Origin: Hormoscilla sp.
GTDB lineage: Bacteria > Cyanobacteriota > Cyanobacteriia > Cyanobacteriales > Desertifilaceae
Direction: 5' to 3'
Assembly (NCBI GenBank): GCA_051439505.1
Contig: JBFRWI010000082.1
Coordinates: 1-19,142, forward strand
DNA: 19,142 bases
Shown: in pieces, positions 6,432 to 18,773 of the stretch
How the letters are laid out: every line of letters begins with the position of its first letter
Position numbering within the stretch: position 1 is the first letter of the stretch
Translations under genes and position numbers: made by a program
Notes under the pieces: generated by a model
What the model was told of the DNA's origin: nothing
The model's input: only the letters and a program-made list of their open reading frames with translations
The model's database searches: none

Positions 6432-6719
6432 ATGAATCTGGAAAAATTACACCAATACCGTGACGAGATCCTGAAATTAGCGGGAGAATATCATTCAGCA
6501 AACGTGCGGGTGTTCGGTTCCGTGGCGAGGGGAGAAGCAACCGAAACCAGCGATGTTGATTTGCTCATAGACCGGACTCCCGAACAGGATTTATTTGATT
6601 TTATTCGCTTTGTTCGCGCATTGGAAGAACTTTTGGGGTGCCAAGTTGACGTGGTACATAGCAGCGCCTTGCATCACTCGATTCGAGAGCAGGTTTTACA
6701 AGAGGCGATCGCTTTATGA
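6432..6719 (+). CDS. mntA: Minimal nucleotidyltransferase antitoxin (MntA-like, type VII TA)
   Basis: FGSVARGEATETSDVDL fits GSX10DXD; 95 aa; ATGA overlap with the next gene. Confidence 0.9.
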   Translation: MNLEKLHQYRDEILKLAGEYHSANVRVFGSVARGEATETSDVDLLIDRTPEQDLFDFIRFVRALEELLGCQVDVVHSSALHHSIREQVLQEAIAL

Positions 6720-7078
6720 GTTCATCATCTAAAAGTCCATTGTTTTTTCTGTATCATATCAAAGAATCTATTGAAGCGATCGCCTGTTATATTCAAGAGG
6801 GAGGTAAGGAAGCATTTTTGCACAAGCGCATGGTGCAAATGGCGGTTTTGCACGAACTCGTAATTATTGGAGAAGCAGCGAATAACCTATCAGATGAATT
6901 GAAAGCTAGCTATTCTCAAATTCCTTGGCGAGACATCGTAGATTTCCGGAATGTGCTTGCACACCATTATTGGGGAGTGGATCTAGAAGTAGTGTGGAAG
7001 ATTATTGAAGAAGGGGATAAGTTACCATTACTGCGATCGCAAGTGCAAGCAATAATTGATGACTTAGAAAAGCAATAA
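6716..7078 (+). CDS. hepT: HEPN/DUF86 ribonuclease toxin (HepT-like)
   Basis: Contains IIGEAA, IPWRDIVDFRNVLAHHYWGVD (RX4HXY) and VW; translationally coupled to the MNT gene. Confidence 0.9.
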   Translation: MSSSSKSPLFFLYHIKESIEAIACYIQEGGKEAFLHKRMVQMAVLHELVIIGEAANNLSDELKASYSQIPWRDIVDFRNVLAHHYWGVDLEVVWKIIEEGDKLPLLRSQVQAIIDDLEKQ

Positions 7079-9756: not shown

Positions 9757-10085
9757 TTATGAGTCTATCTCGAAGAGATAACGAGGTAATCCTGACTGGC
9801 GAATAATAGACTGCAAGGTGCCAATCCTTAATTCCTTATAGTTAGGAACTGGAACGGTAACAGTAGATTCCTCGGTTCGTAACTGCATGATAATATGGCT
9901 AAGCTGTCGCGCATTAAAATTGCATCAACAGAAAGGCTGAAACCATTGTTACCAGCCGTTTAAGAAATTTTGAATTTTGAATTTTGAATTTTGAATTGCT
10001 TACCATGCATCCTTACTTCTACAAAGCCATATTCGGACAAAATTCGACAAACTTCCTTTGCCGATAACACCCTTAACTTACCCAA
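9757..10085 (-). pseudogene. hicA: HicA mRNA interferase toxin interrupted by a 99-bp insertion
   Basis: Removing 9902-10000 and one TA restores 75 aa: MGKLRVLSAKEVCRILSEYGFVEVRMHG|SHIIMQLRTEESTVTVPVPNYKELRIGTLQSIIRQSGLPRYLFEIDS. The TTG start overlaps the end of hicB. Confidence 0.9.
9902..10000. mobile_element. 99-bp non-autonomous element, TA target duplication (copy 1)
   Basis: TA|AGCTGTCGCGCATT...(TTTTGAA)n..TTGCT|TA; a homologous inverted copy of the same length is at 18646-18744. Confidence 0.85.
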
Positions 10086-10305
10086 CTTTCACCTCTACTT
10101 GCTCTACAAAAACTTCATTATTTAATCGAGGCGGAATTTCAGAAGCATCGGCAGTCTCAAAAAAAAGTTCTAAAGCTTCAATCAAATTATACCTGGCTTC
10201 GTCAGCCGTATCTCCTTGACTGGCGATGTCTAATTCTGGGCATAAGGATACATATCCAGAACCCTCTCGTTCAATAATTGCTGTTAGCTGTTTTGTTGGT
10301 TTCAT
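10078..10305 (-). CDS. hicB: HicB-family antitoxin (short form, no DNA-binding domain)
   Basis: TAIIEREGSGYVSLCPELDIASQGDTADEARYNLIEALELF; an alternative start is at 10317. Confidence 0.9.
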   Translation of the reverse strand: MKPTKQLTAIIEREGSGYVSLCPELDIASQGDTADEARYNLIEALELFFETADASEIPPRLNNEVFVEQVEVKVG

Positions 10306-10501
10306 TGTAGCATGCAATCGCTAGATTAATCTTTATTACTCTAGTATAGCAGGTAGCAGATAAATTGGGAATTAAGAATTCAGTTTTTTCTCAAAGACCT
10401 GGTTGATGGGCTAAGTTATCCTCCCAAAGTTATGGCTACCCGCAGATTGAGAAACCAGGCAACTTGGGCGAAACCCGGTTTCTGGGCCAATTTTATTTCA
10501 A

Positions 10502-10711
10502 CTAATGGGGGCAGCAATATTGGCCATCTTCTGTTATGCAGGTTGGGCAAGTTTCCTTTTTATCCTCGGATTTTATTTCTATTCCTGTTACAGACCTCGT
10601 GCTATATTCTTGAGGTCGGGCGATCGCCCCCGATTGTGAGACTGCCGCTAAACTGATTGTTAAGGCGGGAAAAAGTGCGATCGCATAGCCAATTATTGCA
10701 GTAGAATGCAT
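10502..10711 (-). CDS. Small secreted peptide with Cys-rich C-terminus
   Basis: AGGAGG RBS spaced for ATG 10711 (alternative 10717), a hydrophobic signal-like N-terminus, and the tail CPTCITEDGQYCCPH. Confidence 0.6.
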   Translation of the reverse strand: MHSTAIIGYAIALFPALTISLAAVSQSGAIARPQEYSTRSVTGIEIKSEDKKETCPTCITEDGQYCCPH

Positions 10712-10750
10712 TACCATTACCTCCTGAATCTGTAATTAGGCAAACAGCAG

Positions 10751-11089
10751 CTAATGGCTGAGTAGCAAAACACTGGCGATCGCCAAACCCAGGCCCAGGT
10801 AACCGGAAGGGGACAAAGTTTGCTGGTGCAGGATAAAAATCCCCAGCAGATTACTCATAATAATACCCAGACAGCCCGTGAGAGCAGAAACGCGACCGAG
10901 TTCAGTAGCAGACCACAAGTAAAATTGCCCGGCAATGCCGATAAAGCGGGTGATCGTGAAAAGCCAAAACCAAGGGCGATCGACGCTATGGGCAGTAAAT
11001 CCCACGGTTTTGAGATAGTCTACAGCAGGAATTTCGCCAAGCAAAAACGTGGCTTCAGTTAAGATCGCTACCAGTAAAACTTTAGACAT
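10751..11089 (-). CDS. Small multi-TM membrane protein, SMR/DMT-like
   Basis: 112 aa with about four hydrophobic segments. The C-terminal pattern LLGIFILHQQTLS...YLGLGLAIASVLLL resembles SMR TM3-TM4. Confidence 0.65.
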   Translation of the reverse strand: MSKVLLVAILTEATFLLGEIPAVDYLKTVGFTAHSVDRPWFWLFTITRFIGIAGQFYLWSATELGRVSALTGCLGIIMSNLLGIFILHQQTLSPSGYLGLGLAIASVLLLSH

Positions 11090-11141
11090 GATCTATTTTT
11101 GGGCTTGATAATATTGAGGATATTTATAAGCTTCGTCACCA

Positions 11142-11251
11142 CGCCCGAACCCGCCCGAACCCGCCCGAACACGCCGCCCGAACCCTAAAGGGTCGGGCTA
11201 CATGAACAAAGCCCGCCTGCGCGGGCTAGATTCCAAAAGTGAGATGCACCC
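11142..11251. repeat. 10-bp tandem (CGCCCGAACC) running into a composite REP-like element (copy 1)
   Basis: GCCCGAACCCTAAAGGGTCGGGCTAC..AACAAAGCCCGCCTGCGCGGGCTAGAT..AAAAGTGAGATGCAC; inverted copies at 13896-13958 and 14156-14220. Confidence 0.85.
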
Positions 11252-11262
11252 GCAGAGTTTAC

Positions 11263-11292
11263 CCATTCCCTACTGCTAGCAGCAGGGAATGG
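11263..11292. terminator. Hairpin downstream of the 11407-11727 gene
   Basis: CCATTCCCT-ACTGCTAGCAGC-AGGGAATGG; weak U tract. Confidence 0.4.
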
Positions 11293-11406
11293 CAAGTTTC
11301 AATTAGCGATCGAGGTCCTATTCATTGTGAAAATATAATTCATCCTCCACCTTTCAACGTACTGGTATGGGGAAAGAAGAGGCCGATCGCCAACTAACCA
11401 GTGATT

Positions 11407-11727
11407 TTAATTGGCTTCAAAGCACTTCCAAGAGTAGGGATCGCTCGGATTGGTTGCGCGGGAATAGGCCCGTTGGTTGTTGTACTGTATTTTACAGGCA
11501 TTATCCATTGAGATGCTAACTTTGTCCTGTCCTAACTGACAACGCCATCCCCAAGCGTTGTTTTGGACTAAGACTGCTCGGGCCCTCGGGTTGTTAAAGC
11601 GATTCTGACAATATTTGTTCAGGTTAACACCGCCAAGCTCTCGGGCTTCTGCGGTCAAAGCGTAAGTCAGGGATCCGAGGGCGAAAGTTACGGCTGCTAG
11701 CCATTGTTTTACTTTTACAGGTTTCAT
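11407..11727 (-). CDS. Secreted protein with two tandem Cys-pair repeats
   Basis: Signal peptide ending AEA and an AGGAG RBS. The repeats are VNLNKYCQNRFNNPRARAVLVQNNAWGWRC and ISMDNACKIQYNNQRAYSRATNPSDPYSWKC. Confidence 0.85.
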   Translation of the reverse strand: MKPVKVKQWLAAVTFALGSLTYALTAEARELGGVNLNKYCQNRFNNPRARAVLVQNNAWGWRCQLGQDKVSISMDNACKIQYNNQRAYSRATNPSDPYSWKCFEAN

Positions 11728-11862
11728 TTTTGAACTCCTTTAACGTGAAAAATTTATCGAGATGGAAAACTTGCGCAGGCGGGATCTGTCTGTGTAGTCG
11801 TTGGTAGGATTGACATAGAAACCGCCGATATGTTGACAAAAAATGGAAAAATGCCCAACACT

Positions 11863-13731
11863 TCAATTGAGATTTTGCTTGCGCTTCAGCATTGAGACCG
11901 TACCCAAGGCACCAACAGCCAATAAGCCTAACAGGGAACTGGGTTCGGGAACGGACTGAGGTTCTTCATCAAAGGGTCGCATCCGGAAACTACCTGTGAA
12001 ATCGTTGAAAGCTAACTTAATCGGAAAAGCGGTAGGACTATTCGGATCGATCGAGCCATCAATGCCAGTGACGCTAAAGCTGGAAACGCCGCTACCAAAA
12101 TCAACAGTCTCACCAGGACTGAACTCACCCAGTAGGGTATCTCCTACCCAGACACCGAAGGAGTTATCTGCATCAATACCGGTGGGCAAGTCAAGGATGC
12201 TGGTGAACAGGGTATCTCCTATAGCCTCAAATTCAAAGCCGTAATTAGTGGGCGGGTCGAACCATAGACCGCTAACCCCATCGATAAAGACCTGCCAATC
12301 ATCTTCAGTAAAATCTGCCATTTTTGGGAGATCCTGATTCCAGCCTGCACTGGTCGGGGAAAGAGGTTCTAAACCTTTAGCTACCAAACCTGCATTAACG
12401 ATGAACTTAGCTAGCTGTCCCCTGGTAACATTCTCGTCGGGATGGTATGTGCCATCTGGAAAACCGTCGATTATCCCTTCAGATTTTAAGATGTCAATTT
12501 GCGATGCAAAAACATGGTCGCAAGGGATATCCACAAAAACACTCTCACGACTCTGATTATTATTACAATATGGCGGATAAGGACGTTCAATCTCAGAATC
12601 AGTGATTGCGGCAGCCCCGTTCACGACAAACTTAGCCATCTGTCCCCTGGTAACATTCTCGTCGGGATGGTATGTGCCATCAGGGAAACCGTTAACTATC
12701 TGTAAGTCCCTTAACATGTGAATGTAGGAGAAAAAGTCATCTTCAAGAGGAACATCAGGAAAATATGGACCTGCAGAAGTAAATTGTGGCAAGTTAAATC
12801 CATTGACGATAAACTTGGACATGTGCCTTCTGGAAACGGGCTCGTTAGGTCTGTATGTGCCATCTTCATAACCGTCAATCACCTCCCAGTCTTTGAGAAG
12901 GTTAATGTACCCTGCAAAAGGGTGACTGTCCGGGACATCAGAAAAGTAGTATCCTGGTTCTGGCTGCATCTCCCAAAAAGTTTTGAGCGGGTTGAAGTTC
13001 ACCTCACGGAAATATTTTTTGTCCAGATTGTATCCTTCTCCTTTTTCTATATCGATTCCTTGCAAGGCACCCCAAAGATTATTGGTAGAAACTTCATAGT
13101 GCAGATGAGGAGCCACACCACCTTTACTGCCTGTTTTTCCAAGAAAATTTGGTTGTTCTTGCTCTTCTTGCCGTGTTGTTACTGACTGATCTTTGGAGAC
13201 ATAAATCTCATCTAGATGCTTGTAAATATGGTATCGTCCCTCACTGTCCTTGATCGATACAATTCCCAAGTTTTCTTGGACATATTCAACTGTTCCATCA
13301 ACAATGCTGTAAACAGGTCGCGGTGCGTCGCGAATCGCATCCCCACCAATGTCTATCCCACCATGATATCCATATTTTCCAAAATCTGTTTCCCAGGAAT
13401 TGCGATAATCATCAGCAATATAAGCCCCCTTCAATGGAGTTTCAAATGAAACTTCTCCAAACACGGCAAGAGAAAAATCTTGATATAATTGACCAATTTC
13501 AGAATTGGGGTTGTCGTTTATCCAGTTCAAATCAGCAGCACTGTTGATTGCATCTTCCCAATCTTCATCAGTCCAATCACTTAACTTTCCACTTAACTCT
13601 ACAGCGGCTGCGGTCTGATTGTAGGAAGTTAACGTGACAGCTAAAGTTGGTACTCCTAAGAGTATAAGTGCTGAAGTAGCACTGCTAGCAGCTTTTCCCA
13701 TCCATTGGTCGAAATTATTTGTAGATGACAT
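11863..13731 (-). CDS. M23 metallopeptidase + 3 SLH domains + PEP-CTERM sorting signal
   Basis: M23 motifs YHGGIDIG, YKHL and PHLHYEV; three F.D(V/I)P...G(Y/F).DGTY.P.E.V(S/T)R units; VPEPSSLLGLLAVGALGTVSMLKRK. The start is placed at 13731 (MSSTNN) because of the AGGAGG RBS. Confidence 0.92.
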   Translation of the reverse strand: MSSTNNFDQWMGKAASSATSALILLGVPTLAVTLTSYNQTAAAVELSGKLSDWTDEDWEDAINSAADLNWINDNPNSEIGQLYQDFSLAVFGEVSFETPLKGAYIADDYRNSWETDFGKYGYHGGIDIGGDAIRDAPRPVYSIVDGTVEYVQENLGIVSIKDSEGRYHIYKHLDEIYVSKDQSVTTRQEEQEQPNFLGKTGSKGGVAPHLHYEVSTNNLWGALQGIDIEKGEGYNLDKKYFREVNFNPLKTFWEMQPEPGYYFSDVPDSHPFAGYINLLKDWEVIDGYEDGTYRPNEPVSRRHMSKFIVNGFNLPQFTSAGPYFPDVPLEDDFFSYIHMLRDLQIVNGFPDGTYHPDENVTRGQMAKFVVNGAAAITDSEIERPYPPYCNNNQSRESVFVDIPCDHVFASQIDILKSEGIIDGFPDGTYHPDENVTRGQLAKFIVNAGLVAKGLEPLSPTSAGWNQDLPKMADFTEDDWQVFIDGVSGLWFDPPTNYGFEFEAIGDTLFTSILDLPTGIDADNSFGVWVGDTLLGEFSPGETVDFGSGVSSFSVTGIDGSIDPNSPTAFPIKLAFNDFTGSFRMRPFDEEPQSVPEPSSLLGLLAVGALGTVSMLKRKQNLN

Positions 13732-13895
13732 ATTATGCCTCCTTTTTTTGGAATCCACAATACATTCTGTTGCGCGGATCGCACCGGCACTAGGCAAACC
13801 GATCGCGCGACCTAACTAATATCTCCAGCCGAACCATAAACCAGCAACAACCAGTAATCAAGTGGCAGGTTGCTTGTTCATATTAAAGCTAGAGT

Positions 13896-13958
13896 GTGCA
13901 TCTCACTTTTCTCATCTAGCCCGCGCAGGCGGGCTTTGTTCCTGTAGCCGGACCCTTT
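13896..13958. repeat. Composite REP-like element copy 2 (interrupted by the MITE)
   Basis: Reverse complement of copy 1; it resumes at 14119. Confidence 0.8.
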
Positions 13959-14118
13959 GGGTGTGGTCAAAAGTAGTTGATAGTCATTTGCTGCCGATAA
14001 CTGTAGGGGCGAAGCATTCGGGGGACCAATTATGACATAAATTGACAGATATCCTCTCCGAATGCTTCGCCCTGCCCCCGCGAGGTCTTCGGTGTACCAA
14101 CTGTTTTTGACCACACCC
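13959..14118. mobile_element. 160-bp MITE with 21-bp TIRs and 9-bp target-site duplication
   Basis: The TIRs are GGGTGTGGTCAAAAGTAGTTG and CAACTGTTTTTGACCACACCC (19/21 match). GGACCCTTT flanks it at 13950-13958 and 14119-14127. An internal 15-bp IR spans 14007-14021/14058-14072. Confidence 0.88.
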
Positions 14119-14155
14119 GGACCCTTTAGGGTACCGTTCCGGAAAAATCGGGCGG

Positions 14156-14256
14156 CTTTTCTCATCTAGCCCGCGCAGGCGGGCTTTGTACCTGTAGCTG
14201 GGCCCTTTAGGGTTCGGGCGGGGGAGGTCAAGTACCAACTGTTTTTGACCACACCC
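14156..14256. repeat. Composite REP-like element copy 3 plus an orphan MITE right end
   Basis: CTCATCTAGCCCGCGCAGGCGGGCTTTGT...CCCTTTAGGGTTCGGGCG; TIR copy at 14236-14256. Confidence 0.8.
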
Positions 14257-14338
14257 CTTCGCCCGTGCCCCTCGTGAGATGCATTCTTAACCCCTCGTTC
14301 CCACGGATCTGCCTGGGAACGGGTGACAGCGACTCAAC

Positions 14339-15937
14339 TTATCCACGGGAAAACCAATAGGTTTGCAAAGGACTGCGGGTGGCGCGTTTGATAAAGTCCT
14401 TATTATAATGGGCACCTCCAGTTCCTCCAAAACCATCGGGAGTGCGAGTCTCGAAATGCAAGTGATTGTCTGCATTGATTCGGCCTAGATACGTTTCCGT
14501 ATCGATCCTGTCTCCCCGAGAGAGACTGGGATTCAGATTTAAATGACCGTAAACCCATTGGGATAAACCAGTTTGGCTAGTAACGCCAATGAAACCAGAA
14601 TCGATCCAAGCAACTGTTCCCGGAGCTACTGCTTCTACCCGCGTCCCTGTTGTGGCACCAATGTCGATTCCCGCGTGCCACTCTTTGATACCATCATTGT
14701 CGGGATCGCCGTTATAATAGCCTGGGTCCATATAGCCCGCCGTCATGGGAAATCGCTCTCCCCGTCCGAAAAGATCGTAATTCAGATCGGTGTAAATTTG
14801 CTCTACTTCGCGGCTGGTTAAATTATGATCGCGATAGTAGTCAGGCCACCCATAATCGAAGCCAGTATTGTCACTGGTTTGCCGGTCCCAATCATCGTCA
14901 CTCAAGGAAGTCAGTTCCGGAAAGTAGTTTTTGTCGAAAGAATCCCCCGAGACGTTTTCCCAAGAGACATCGAAGTAAGCATCCCCATCCCGTTCGCGGA
15001 AGTATGCTAATACCCAATGATCGCCGTCAGAGGTAGGCGTGAACTCAATCGTTTTGCCTCCGTAAGCATCTTCGTTAAACTTCCATTCTGTGATGTAAGA
15101 CCAATTGCCTCCATTCACCGGTCGAGTAGCTAGGGCATAACCGTCGTCGGCGCGGAATTGGAACCTGTAAGTATCTCCGGCTTCAAACTCGGTTTGCGTC
15201 CACATTTCGAGCATGAAAAAGTCATCGGGAATGCGGGAATTGGGACTGCCCCGTCCCCAATCAGCGGAAAAACCTTGTTTGCCGTCGCTGCGGGTATTGG
15301 AGTAGCTCAAGTTGGCTAAACGCGAGCCAGTATTGGCATTTGAAGCCCGGACAGACCAATTATTGCTATAAAAATTGGCTTGCTCGACGGAAATGACTTG
15401 TTCGTCAAGGAGAACGGTGCCCCGATCGTCCTCTGACTGAATGCGCAGTTGTTCGGCCTCGCTGACAGAGAAATCCAAAACAGCATTTCGGAATGCCTCG
15501 CCTTCATCACCAGGAGTATCTGCACCTGGGTTCAGCAGCTCATCGATCCGGTGACCAACTTCCTCAATCACGACCTCCGCGAGTAAGTCTACCGGTCCGG
15601 AACCTGTCACTAAAGATTGAGCCAAGTAGATCGCATCTTGTGCGCTAGCATAAGCGCCCTGGGCTCCGTTCATGGCCTCATCGGGCACAATTTTAATTCC
15701 AGAAAGCAAGCCAGTATCTCCCTGGGACATGTCAGACAACAGGTTTTGGATCGCCACAGGATCGCGAACCCCATAAATTTGCTCCATGTCAGATTGAGCG
15801 GAGCCAGAACCGGCAAATTTGTTGAGCTGATTCTCGACTTCTCCTAACACCGGAGACAAAACGGCATTATCGACTAGGGAATCACCGGCAGCATCCAAGG
15901 AACTGTTGTCCGCCATAGAAATATTGTCGTCAAACAT
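14339..15937 (-). CDS. Acidic multidomain protein: EExGH domain + PA14-like domain + M23 metallopeptidase
   Basis: The N-terminal domain reads GAQGAYA..AIYL..IEEVGHRID..DTPGDEG. The PA14-like part reads WGRGSP..YRFQFRADDG..YFRERDGDAYFDVSW. M23 motifs are WHAGIDIG, YGHL and NHLHFET. It has a GAGGT RBS and no evident Sec signal. Confidence 0.88.
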   Translation of the reverse strand: MFDDNISMADNSSLDAAGDSLVDNAVLSPVLGEVENQLNKFAGSGSAQSDMEQIYGVRDPVAIQNLLSDMSQGDTGLLSGIKIVPDEAMNGAQGAYASAQDAIYLAQSLVTGSGPVDLLAEVVIEEVGHRIDELLNPGADTPGDEGEAFRNAVLDFSVSEAEQLRIQSEDDRGTVLLDEQVISVEQANFYSNNWSVRASNANTGSRLANLSYSNTRSDGKQGFSADWGRGSPNSRIPDDFFMLEMWTQTEFEAGDTYRFQFRADDGYALATRPVNGGNWSYITEWKFNEDAYGGKTIEFTPTSDGDHWVLAYFRERDGDAYFDVSWENVSGDSFDKNYFPELTSLSDDDWDRQTSDNTGFDYGWPDYYRDHNLTSREVEQIYTDLNYDLFGRGERFPMTAGYMDPGYYNGDPDNDGIKEWHAGIDIGATTGTRVEAVAPGTVAWIDSGFIGVTSQTGLSQWVYGHLNLNPSLSRGDRIDTETYLGRINADNHLHFETRTPDGFGGTGGAHYNKDFIKRATRSPLQTYWFSRG

Positions 15938-15966
15938 GAGATTACCTCATTGAAGCTAGATGTCTA

Positions 15967-15998
15967 TGAGAGCGAATCTCGGATGTGATTTGCGCTCA
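15967..15998. promoter_or_regulatory. Imperfect inverted repeat 30 bp upstream of the PA14-M23 gene
   Basis: TGAGAGCGAATC-TCGGATGT-GATTTGCGCTCA. Confidence 0.45.
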
Positions 15999-16033
15999 CA
16001 TTTCAATGTTGGCACCTCGTTCCTGGATTGCCT

Positions 16034-16184
16034 AGATCAAAAATAGTTAAAATCTTAGATCATTCTTAGATCAGTTCAGAACGATCTCAAAATAGATCAC
16101 TTTTCAGATCATTCTCAGATCATTTCAGATCTGGATCTCAAACTAGATCAATTCTCAGATCATTCTCAGATCATTCCTAGATCA
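16034..16184. repeat. Phased AGATC(A) box array, putative operator
   Basis: AGATC at 16034, 16057, 16068, 16094, 16106, 16117, 16127, 16145, 16157, 16168 and 16179, plus GATC at 16083 and 16134. Three ~48-51-bp units are visible. Confidence 0.9.
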
Positions 16185-16261
16185 CCTTAAAAAAACTTGG
16201 TCACAGGTGGGAAATTGGTGCTATAAACGATTTATGCTAGATTGAGCAAGAGATAAGAACG

Positions 16262-18646
16262 ATGTCAGTCAAACTTAACAAAGATGGCCCTCGTATACTG
16301 AGAGAGGCTTATAAGCGTAAAGGGTTGTCACAGTACGAATGGGCACGCCAAGCTGGCTATACAGAGATAGTTGTTAAAAATCTTCTCAGAATTGAAGGCG
16401 GCGGTCCTGTCAGTCAAGAGGCGCTAGAGCGTTTGTGTGAAGTCGTGGAGGTTAACTGGCAAGATGTTGTGGAAGACCCCCCGATCGACCCTCTACTGGC
16501 AGAGGTACGGGAGAAGCACCGGCCATACTTGATCGAGAAGCACGGCAAGATACGAGTCTTGGACATGGAACAGCCCATCGGCCTAGATGATGTCTTTATC
16601 GAAGTCAAGATTCTCGAAAAATTGACCAAACGCTTGCACCTCAGCCGGAAAGAACTGATGGACCAAGCTAACCATCCCGACCATGACTTTGAACGTTGGG
16701 GTTTCGGTCGCGTTCTGGAAGAGGGCTTGTCAGGTCTGGATGCCTTGAAAAAATTTCAGAAATTGGTGGTATTGGGTAAGCCGGGTTCGGGGAAAACCAC
16801 GTTTTTACGTCGGGTTGCCATTCTCAATATTCACGGGCATTTTCTGCCCGATCATGTCCCGGTGTTCATACCCTTGGCTGACTTTGCTGCCGATCGCAAG
16901 CAGCCTTCTTTGCTGGACTATATTATTGAGCATTGGCAAAACCGGGGGGGCATTTCTCCGGAAACGACCAAAGAGTTGCTCAGGCGAGGGCGTGTCTTGG
17001 TCTTGTTGGATGGACTCGATGAGGTCAAAGAAGCCGATAGCGAACGAGTCATTCGATCGGTCGAAGCTTTTACTCACCAGTTTATGGAAAACCATTTTGC
17101 CATCACCTGCCGCATTGCGGCCCGGGAGTACACATTTAAATCCTTTACTGAGGTGGAGGTGGCTGATTTTAAGGATGCTCAAATTAAAGATTTTGCTGAC
17201 AAGTGGTTCTCGGCCCGCCGCGACAAACACAAAACTTGCAAATCAGCAGAAGAGTTTTTGCAACAGCTGGAAGCCCATCCTCGCATGCAGCAACTGGCAA
17301 CTTCGCCTCTGCTGTTGACTCTGCTATGCTTGGTATTTGAAGATTCCGGTCGCTTTATGGAGAGTCGTGCCGATCTTTACAAGGAAGGAATCGATTTGTT
17401 GCTCTTCAAGTGGGACAGTCGAGAACACAATCTTCAGCGTCCCCGAGTGTACAGCGGTCTGGGGCCTCGACGCATCCGATCGCTACTGGGGCAGATAGCC
17501 AAAGATACCCTGGAACGAGAGGAAAAATTTTTTCGGGAGAGACATATTGAATGCTGGATAGGTGACTTTATCCGCAATTTGCCGGAAGCTAAGACAGATC
17601 CGGAGGCTTTGAGGGTCGATAGCCATCAAGTTCTTGAATCCATTGGAGGATACGGTCTATTGATAGAGCGATCGCAGAAGTTATGGTCTTTTTCGCACTT
17701 GACCTTCCACGAGTATTTTGCGGCAGATGCGATCGCGGAGCGTTGTAACCCTGACATGCCTGACGATCCAGTCCTCAATCAACTGGTCAGTCATCTGTGC
17801 GATCGGCGTTGGCGAGAGGTCTTTCTTCTGACCTCGGAAATGCTAGTTAATGCCGATAAGTTATTGCTGTTGATGAAAAGAAAGACCGATGCATTGATTG
17901 CAGAAACAGATGCATTGCAGTCAATGCTTAATTCTTTATCCCAGAGGTCTTGCGATGTTAAGTCTCGATATAAGCCTGCTGGGATTCGTGCTTTTGATAT
18001 AGAAGGGGCAATGGATAATTATAATCCTCATGTATGTGCAAGAGATAAATCACTTGAAGATAATTTATCTCTTGAAATTATCTTGCTTCAAATAATGGGA
18101 ATTGTTTTATACAATCACGATTTGTCTAGCTCTCTTTCTTTGGGTGTTGATACTTGTATAGATCGGATCATTGAACCTCTTTTTGAAGAAGATTTCCCCA
18201 GGGAAATTGATTATGGCAAGGCAAGCGATCGCTATGAACTCTGGCAAAATGCAGAACTTGATACAGATGTCAGACAAATCAGTAAGGCCATTGAAAAAGC
18301 TAGTCATCCCACCCTGGGCAACCCCGAGTTGAAGCAAGCATTACAACAGCTTCAGGATAAGCTGCCTGACGATTTAGATGAAAACAATCAAGAGTGGCTC
18401 AAAACCCAGTCAGCGAAGGATTGGGGGGAAGAACTCAGGCAAGTTATCATTAAATATCGAGGGATTGGGCATGATTGGCAAGGACAGTTTACACCTGCGG
18501 AACGCCAACTGTTGAAAAGCTATTACAATGCCAATGCCTTGTTGGCTCGTTGTTTGAATGGTAACTCGGTTGTCTCTCCTCATGTTCGCCAAGAAATTGA
18601 GGATACTTTGCTATTGCCTGACGCCGAAATTAAGGCCAGGTCATAA
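16262..18646 (+). CDS. XRE-like HTH + NACHT NTPase + C-terminal helical (NCH2-like) domain
   Basis: HTH: KGLSQYEWARQAGYTEIVVKNLL..LERLCEVVEVNWQDV. Walker A: GKPGSGKTT. Walker B: LVLLDGLDE. Also ITCR, SPLLLTLLC, FSHLTFHEYFAA, WREVFLL and a C-terminal IGHDW..F..LKSYYNAN.LL..CL..VRQEIEDTLLLP. Confidence 0.93.
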   Translation: MSVKLNKDGPRILREAYKRKGLSQYEWARQAGYTEIVVKNLLRIEGGGPVSQEALERLCEVVEVNWQDVVEDPPIDPLLAEVREKHRPYLIEKHGKIRVLDMEQPIGLDDVFIEVKILEKLTKRLHLSRKELMDQANHPDHDFERWGFGRVLEEGLSGLDALKKFQKLVVLGKPGSGKTTFLRRVAILNIHGHFLPDHVPVFIPLADFAADRKQPSLLDYIIEHWQNRGGISPETTKELLRRGRVLVLLDGLDEVKEADSERVIRSVEAFTHQFMENHFAITCRIAAREYTFKSFTEVEVADFKDAQIKDFADKWFSARRDKHKTCKSAEEFLQQLEAHPRMQQLATSPLLLTLLCLVFEDSGRFMESRADLYKEGIDLLLFKWDSREHNLQRPRVYSGLGPRRIRSLLGQIAKDTLEREEKFFRERHIECWIGDFIRNLPEAKTDPEALRVDSHQVLESIGGYGLLIERSQKLWSFSHLTFHEYFAADAIAERCNPDMPDDPVLNQLVSHLCDRRWREVFLLTSEMLVNADKLLLLMKRKTDALIAETDALQSMLNSLSQRSCDVKSRYKPAGIRAFDIEGAMDNYNPHVCARDKSLEDNLSLEIILLQIMGIVLYNHDLSSSLSLGVDTCIDRIIEPLFEEDFPREIDYGKASDRYELWQNAELDTDVRQISKAIEKASHPTLGNPELKQALQQLQDKLPDDLDENNQEWLKTQSAKDWGEELRQVIIKYRGIGHDWQGQFTPAERQLLKSYYNANALLARCLNGNSVVSPHVRQEIEDTLLLPDAEIKARS

Positions 18647-18744
18647 GCAATTCAAAATTAAAAATTCAGAATTAAAAATTGGGAAAGCCTCTTAGAGCAA
18701 GGGTTTCAGCTCTTGGGCCGTAGCAATGTAAATGCGCGACAGCT
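18646..18744. mobile_element. 99-bp non-autonomous element, TA target duplication (copy 2, inverted)
   Basis: TA|AGCAATTCAAAATT...AATGCGCGACAGCT|TA; sits in the NACHT stop codon. Confidence 0.8.
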
Positions 18745-18773
18745 TAATGATTTAGCTATGAAAGTCTCGCACA

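Follow-up and report, generated by a model that had tools for sequence, protein, structure and literature searches.

The closest described relatives of the system considered here are MalT and AfsR. According to the accessible parts of the published sources, oligomeric MalT binds multi-site promoters and is tethered to the membrane through a subunit of a transporter (PMC10427625), and AfsR binds 11-bp direct repeats that overlap the -35 element (PMC10936776). The second point of reference is the bacterial NACHT proteins, for which the sections consulted of Kibby et al. list DNA-binding and transcription-regulatory domains among the predicted adaptor effectors and describe large cyanobacterial expansions (10.1101/2022.07.19.500537). 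Helix-turn-helix (HTH) effectors and a NACHT gene that is a chromatin immunoprecipitation target of HetR are mentioned in two further papers (PMC7159879, PMC4192349), the accessible parts of which do not mention arrays. Here, we analyze a 19,142-nucleotide stretch of DNA from the cyanobacterium Hormoscilla sp. (the window; contig C82, JBFRWI010000082.1, of the 6.5-Mb source assembly G000), in which a gene for an HTH-headed NACHT protein faces a divergent set of genes, including one for an SMR-like membrane protein, across an array of short direct repeats.

Given what is observed, namely the genes present, the array, the linkage with the SMR-like gene, the correspondence between box and HTH type, and the turnover of the other cargo, we read the locus as a MalT/AfsR-like STAND transcription regulator cassette with the SMR-like protein as the fixed member of the divergent unit. 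Based on sequence comparison, we give this reading a probability of about 60%. In the proposed mechanism, the XRE-type head of the NACHT protein would bind the array, and oligomerization dependent on nucleoside triphosphate, by analogy with MalT and AfsR, would let several heads fill boxes that lie one helical turn apart. Because the array lies between two back-to-back candidate promoters, the NACHT protein probably determines its own abundance and also controls the divergent unit. An exchangeable slot would lie between the array and the SMR-like gene, occupied in the window by the genes for the two M23 peptidases and for a small secreted protein. The trigger would most probably be a signal from the envelope or from an invader. 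A literature search of titles and abstract openings, with few subscription papers, returned no description of this cassette.

The Proposed Operator Array and Its Candidate Promoters

Between positions 16034 and 16183, the motif AGATC occurs 11 times on the forward strand and three times on the reverse strand, with a period of about 11 bp and a higher one of about 51 bp. Over the whole window AGATC is not enriched (41 found, 41.85 expected), and AGATC clusters listed elsewhere in the genome differ in unit and spacing. The 260 nucleotides before the NACHT start codon hold 13 boxes of the form RGNTCW against 2.7 in shuffled sequences, and 0 of 500 shuffles reached 13. On the NACHT side, an extended -10-like element, a motif picked after viewing the sequences, lies 40–42 bp beyond the last box in all five loci of the window's clade, the distance being 40 bp in the window and 41–42 bp in the four relatives. 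On the cargo side, the distal box is directly adjoined by a -35-like hexamer in three of the five (the window, G254, and L080); the hexamer lies ten bases further out in L166 and is poor in G002. Neither element is among the sites listed by a generic promoter scan. The locus thus has phased direct repeats at a candidate target promoter, as in MalT/AfsR-type regulators, with both promoters predicted from sequence.

The array might instead have arisen by neutral slippage, as one more of the many short tandem repeats in a genome that abounds in tandem and dispersed repeats; local duplication is also visible in the 51-bp unit. The box motif, its phasing of about 10–11 bp, and its distance from the -10-like element are, however, kept in relatives of several families while the flanking bases diverge, and we regard slippage as highly improbable. 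Two other assignments were rejected. A CRISPR array has repeats of 23–50 bp with unique spacers, and the boxes here are 6 bp long at intervals of 10–12 bp; the spacer also contains a CRP-like inverted repeat, whose spacing is 7 bp and which is disrupted in G002.

The NACHT Protein

The NACHT and NCH2 domains of the 794-residue protein score above the Pfam cut-offs. Walker A (residues 172–179) and a DGLDE Walker B are intact and invariant across nine NACHT sequences, and the predicted NACHT fold matches NLRC4 and NOD2, in a full-length model that is poor (mean predicted local distance difference test score, pLDDT, 57.6) and was used for this fold only. With a NACHT domain, a Walker A, and a Walker B of the form D[GAS]hDE, the protein falls into the NACHT clade of STAND NTPases. 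Sensor repeats of the LRR, TPR, or WD40 type are absent. At the N-terminus, Pfam HTH_31 stays below its cut-off (E 0.001), and the first 80 residues are modeled as an XRE/Cro-type HTH (mean pLDDT 84.7) with C.BclI, HipB, CapH, and SinR as the best PDB matches. Through this fold (residues 1–63) the protein joins a predicted DNA-binding domain to a STAND module, as MalT/AfsR-type regulators do. A pattern search of the species genomes from the single NACHT protein gave no match.

Linkage to the SMR-Like Gene

A search of 401 genomes found the SMR-like gene in 7, each time (7/7) with a NACHT-NCH2 gene nearby. A separate search added L166, where the two genes are again neighbors, so that the linkage holds in all eight loci found through the SMR-like gene, and L080, reached through its NACHT gene, has an SMR-like gene as well, which brings the total to nine SMR-linked loci. 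A copy from another Hormoscilla sp. locus (L165) is 80% identical to that of the window, and no match occurs among plasmid records. The SMR-like and NACHT genes stand directly back to back in G648, G446, and G617, with nothing between the array and the SMR-like gene; in G254, L080, and L166 a 52-residue open reading frame (ORF) lies between them.

The SMR-like protein itself looks atypical. Its ESM Atlas neighbors carry Multi_Drug_Res or EamA in 11–37% of members, it has a weak Qac match, and all scores remain below the curated family cut-offs. Proton-coupled SMR pumps are expected to carry a glutamate in helix 1. The window protein has Glu at position 12, the site is Gln in five of six aligned relatives, and a conserved acidic residue follows seven positions after it. 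The tethering of MalT by a transporter is a possible analogy for this partner. As a separate observation, the winged-HTH NACHT proteins that accompany the SMR-like gene in L161, L162, and L163 start with a hydrophobic stretch ahead of the HTH, which suggests membrane anchoring.

The strict linkage, the patchy distribution, and the frequent decay of the pair could also fit an abortive defense system in which the NACHT protein senses infection, a holin-like SMR-like protein kills the cell, aided by hydrolases where present, and the HTH and array merely silence the pair. The replacement of the helix-1 glutamate by glutamine agrees with such a role, and bacterial NACHT proteins can be antiphage, as reported in the consulted sections of one study (10.1101/2022.07.19.500537). 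PADLOC and NCBIfam defense models, by contrast, match the NTPase core only, the NCBIfam ones far below their cut-offs (EruA, 38.8 bits against a cut-off of 1000); no named NACHT defense system matches over the full length, PDC-S60 covering residues 164–491 only; and the flanks of the relatives hold mostly housekeeping or transposase genes rather than defense islands. We consider this explanation improbable.

Box Type and HTH Type

The SMR-linked spacers divide by the head of the NACHT protein. Seven spacers of XRE-headed copies contain 6–15 RGNTCW boxes and no WWTACAG, and three spacers of winged-HTH copies contain six WWTACAG boxes each and no same-strand RGNTCW, in both cases with patterns derived from the same spacers in which they were counted. 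Compared with 500 shuffles, each SMR-linked spacer either exceeds all of them or ranks close to the highest (p 0.002–0.004), and the gaps between boxes cluster at 10–12 bp. In a quick version of the NACHT tree, limited to 50 of 94 rows (eight SMR-linked and the 42 nearest of the rest), three changes are needed for the SMR-linked rows, which may still share a single origin.

Two relatives show how the locus changes. A decayed orthologue in the same genus (G002) retains residues 1–129 of the PA14-M23 protein and a GNAT-like remnant; the 51-bp period is kept, and both the boxes and the recognition helix have changed. In G478, the slot before the SMR-like gene holds genes for a CHAP protein and for a secreted, proline-rich one; upstream lies an array together with the remnant of a NACHT gene, and a second, intact NACHT copy has its own array, array and promoter having been duplicated together with the NACHT gene.

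These comparisons also bear on whether the HTH acts on the array for autoregulation only, with the divergent genes as hot-spot passengers under their own promoters. The NACHT-side anchor is the best-conserved register, all boxes point the same way, the cargo varies even inside the genus, and the M23-SLH gene has its own leader (see below). Autoregulation alone would not readily account for the SMR-like gene staying with the NACHT gene in 8/8 loci, three of them directly across the array, nor for the cargo-side -35-like element that abuts the distal box in three loci, nor for the recurrence of other cargo genes opposite HTH genes with arrays; we therefore hold it to be unlikely.

Layout of the Locus and Its Cargo Genes

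The window contains the NACHT gene on the forward strand opposite five reverse-strand genes, six ORFs in all (Table 1). The earlier note, made from the letters of the window, had described this divergent layout and the 324-bp spacer, about half of it AGATC boxes, and both descriptions hold, the array making up 47% of the spacer with periods of 11 and 51 bp. It had also called all five divergent genes envelope or secreted genes. Of the two large cargo proteins, a signal-like N-terminus is found in the M23-SLH-PEP-CTERM protein only; an N-terminal hydrophobic signal is absent from the PA14-M23 protein.

Table 1. Positions of the genes and sequence elements of the cassette in the window.
Feature	Position	Strand	Remarks
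71-aa ORF, hydrophobic N-terminus, Cys-rich tail	10502..10717	-	gene status uncertain
SMR/DMT-like membrane protein, 112 aa	10751..11089	-	
Further hairpin repeat copy	11174-11249		
Secreted-type Cys-repeat protein, 106 aa	11407..11727	-	
Signal-like N-terminus, M23, 3 SLH, PEP-CTERM, 622 aa	11863..13731	-	ORF open to 13797
5' region and first codons of M23-SLH gene	13701..13900	-	
Dispersed hairpin repeats, terminator-like, in gap between the two M23 genes	13896-13961, 14156-14221 (span 13896..14221)	none	
PA14-like region and C-terminal M23 peptidase, 532 aa	14339..15937	-	Pfam, motifs
Spacer between NACHT gene and divergent genes	15938-16261		324 bp
Weak cargo promoter-like element	16006..16034	-	-35-like 16034-16029, -10-like 16011-16006; 7/12 consensus; inferred, not mapped
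Direct-repeat array, proposed operator	16034..16184	+	10 AGATCA and variants, most gaps 10-12 bp
Extended -10-like element (TGnTA..) of NACHT gene	16219..16227	+	40 bp past last-box start
XRE-type HTH, NACHT, NCH2 STAND NTPase, 794 aa	16262..18646	+	Pfam, motifs, fold
N-terminal XRE/Cro-type HTH, aa 1-63, proposed array reader	16262..16450	+	predicted fold

In the PA14-M23 protein, PA14 is below the Pfam cut-off (E 0.0016) and M23 above it; M23, the three SLH domains, and PEP-CTERM of the 622-residue protein all score above their cut-offs. Both proteins keep the HxxxD and HxH motifs expected of M23 metallopeptidases. The 200-nucleotide 5' region of the M23-SLH gene is 96% identical to that of a paralogue on contig C62 and occurs nowhere else in the genome, so that this gene appears to travel with its own leader. 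Similar, frameshifted DNA exists in G002 for the 71-residue ORF, which was not found in 150 other genomes. The gaps separating the cargo genes measure 136–600 bp, and two of them contain a hairpin repeat present in about 168 copies genome-wide; joint transcription of the five genes is therefore only putative. The hairpin matches Rfam CRISPR-DR28, the two matches being single dispersed hairpins outside the array.

The earlier note had gone on to propose a dedicated NLR-like sensor whose output is transcription and which switches on secreted peptidoglycan hydrolases for antagonism, defense, or wall remodeling. Transcription as the output gains support from the way in which box type tracks HTH type and from the register of the array with promoter-like elements on both sides. 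For the hydrolases, one can point to the intact metal motifs of both M23 domains, the CHAP protein in the slot of G478, and the M23-SLH-PEP-CTERM paralogue opposite an HTH-NB-ARC gene on C62. Intact wall hydrolases are nevertheless present in only two of the nine SMR-linked loci (the window, with two M23 proteins, and G478) and in 0/48 divergent neighbors in the wider family; the C62 array alone is not significant (p 0.07); and other cassettes of the source genome stand opposite trypsin, a C39 peptidase, FG-GAP/Calx-beta proteins, or uncharacterized proteins. A definition of the system by its hydrolases thus gains no support. Overall, the interpretation given in the note is supported in part. 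A sensor dedicated to wall hydrolases is, on balance, quite unlikely.

The Wider HTH-NACHT-NCH2 Family

Among 61 genomes, 57 encode relatives of the NACHT protein. Of the 124 distinct loci whose upstream DNA was long enough to test, 13 have an upstream repeat at p ≤ 0.05, and five of these 13 are SMR-linked. The nearest ORF of 95 HTH-headed loci without an SMR-like gene is divergent in 48 cases (about 100 residues or more), co-oriented in 38, and absent from the DNA covered in nine, in a census in which many flanks measure only 1.5 kb and small ORFs are missed. By Pfam, none of the 48 divergent neighbors is a wall hydrolase, and 16 have no Pfam match at all. One HTH-NACHT subgroup (L132, L135, L125) lies opposite a CyanoTRADDas_TM two-helix membrane gene at 130–135 bp, possibly a parallel to the SMR-like partner, and another (L049, L060, L068) lies opposite DUF3775.

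Related Cassettes in This and Other Genomes

Arrays of this kind extend beyond NACHT genes. In the source genome, a significant upstream array precedes 8 of the 20 genes with an HTH head, as against 5 of the 110 control genes, and seven of the eight belong to the winged-HTH class. Four of 22 PEP-CTERM-like genes have such a gene within 3 kb. The best relative of the 106-residue cargo protein, in G113, stands opposite an HTH-only gene across AAAGTTGGA boxes; contig C41 of the source genome has the same helix and box, with an FG-GAP/Calx-beta protein as cargo. On C62 (L038:8795-15490), an M23-DUF4214-SLH-PEP-CTERM gene and a 150-residue secreted-type gene face an HTH-NB-ARC gene, followed by a kinase-TPR gene, across a spacer with TTGTCTCA repeats. 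The 52-residue ORF has two homologues in the source genome and one in G004, which diverge from HTH-headed genes (ATPase-TPR in the source genome, a broken copy in G004) across spacers in which repeat boxes are seen by eye; C70 and C148 both fail the array test. Basic ORFs of 52–63 residues form a family opposite HTH-headed STAND-type genes (L160:9876-10031, C148:12218-12409, C70 ~13100-13250, and L168) for which there is no Pfam match. Since cargo genes recur opposite other HTH or HTH-STAND genes with other boxes, the locus appears to be one copy of a mix-and-match combination of regulator, array, and cargo.

Winged-HTH genes, with or without NB-ARC or AAA_35, are present in 110 of 121 genomes with up to 44 matches per genome, and same-strand 9-nucleotide box arrays were seen with such genes on C41, C89, C32, C195, C109, C26, and C100 (L202-L212) and in L230-L289. 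An unbiased array test is passed by 10 of 56 loci of this class; a post hoc 9-nucleotide pattern gives 152 same-strand versus 48 opposite-strand matches in 66 loci. In the 25 loci that have at least three boxes and a helix that could be parsed, and whose sequences are related, arginine in the helix goes with T at box position 3 (5/5 versus 2/20) and an acidic residue goes with C at box position 6 (9/12 versus 1/13). These helix-box data concern a sibling family and not the XRE-type HTH of the window.

A more far-reaching proposal would make the locus a member of a large, undescribed, plug-and-play, immune-type regulon family of filamentous cyanobacteria, in which an NLR-like STAND sensor with transcription as its output, an operator array governed by a helix-to-base code, and a divergent slot for the exchange of secreted and membrane effectors are combined, and in which, in the branch of the window, the atypical SMR-like protein, together with wall hydrolases if there are any, kills or severs the sensing cell and thereby protects the filament. 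We offer it as a tentative and rather unlikely extension.

Evidence Weighing against a Regulator Cassette

Several observations weigh against the regulator cassette as we propose it. Arrays at p ≤ 0.05 precede only 8 of 115 loci without the SMR-like gene, which is near chance. The contrast between XRE and winged heads amounts to about three NACHT lineages, so that shared ancestry could give the same appearance as co-variation; moreover, the patterns for the boxes were chosen from the spacers that they describe, and the XRE group is too small for the middle box base to be linked to helix residues. The intact NACHT copy of G478 is convergent with the SMR-like gene. The M23-SLH gene's own 5' region and the hairpins in the cargo gaps mean that the distal cargo may be transcribed independently. 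Finally, because arrays also precede HTH-only proteins, the NTPase is dispensable for the architecture; the pair of HTH and array looks primary and the NTPase like an added sensor.

Sequences Surrounding the Cassette

Tandem repeats of a heptamer bracket the cassette in inverted orientation (76%) at 9900-10002 and 18644-18746; the element has more than 100 genomic copies, and the bracketing may therefore be chance. Two small adjacent ORFs at 6432-7078 resemble, by motif, a nucleotidyltransferase-HEPN toxin-antitoxin pair, and an ORF at 10078-10317 resembles a HicB-type antitoxin.

Comparison with Known Systems

Cyanobacteria carry many NACHT paralogues, and the locus bears on what their outputs are. 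Because it provides a candidate operator, target promoters, and a constant partner, a transcriptional output of some bacterial NLR-like proteins becomes directly testable. The apparent helix-box code of the sibling family would, in addition, allow target prediction and orthogonal regulators.

Like the cyanobacterial winged-HTH(-NB-ARC/AAA_35) genes, the NACHT gene has an HTH head, a same-strand array, and a divergent neighbor, and three SMR-linked NACHT proteins use the winged-HTH head of that class; the HTH fold and the box of the window differ from it. Repeats before the winged-HTH class have reportedly been described under the name vapR-vmaP, a description that the literature search did not recover and that, if it exists, would make the winged-HTH repeat part less new. 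The SMR-like protein resembles the SMR/DMT transporters (EmrE, Qac, ArnE/F) in its length of about 112 residues and its hydrophobicity, and differs from them in its scores below the curated cut-offs and in a helix-1 Glu that is mostly Gln in relatives.

The NACHT module with its DGLDE signature and the cyanobacterial expansion are shared with the bacterial NLR-related NACHT proteins (10.1101/2022.07.19.500537), whereas the operator array, the candidate target, and the SMR-like partner of the window are not found in the consulted sections of that paper. With MalT, AfsR (a large SARP), and GutR, as far as the accessible parts of the sources describe them, the protein shares the fusion of an NTPase oligomerization module to a DNA-binding domain, and with MalT and AfsR the direct repeats that lie close to the -35 element at a spacing of one helical turn (PMC10936776, PMC10427625). 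Unlike these two, it has a NACHT module rather than one of the MalT/AP-ATPase clade, an N-terminal XRE head rather than a LuxR/OmpR-type DNA-binding domain, and a helical NCH2 C-terminus rather than a TPR-type sensor; 10–15 boxes would serve two divergent candidate promoters, and head, box, and cargo are exchangeable. By analogy, then, the NACHT protein would work like MalT and AfsR, while by clade and domains it is not a member of their group.

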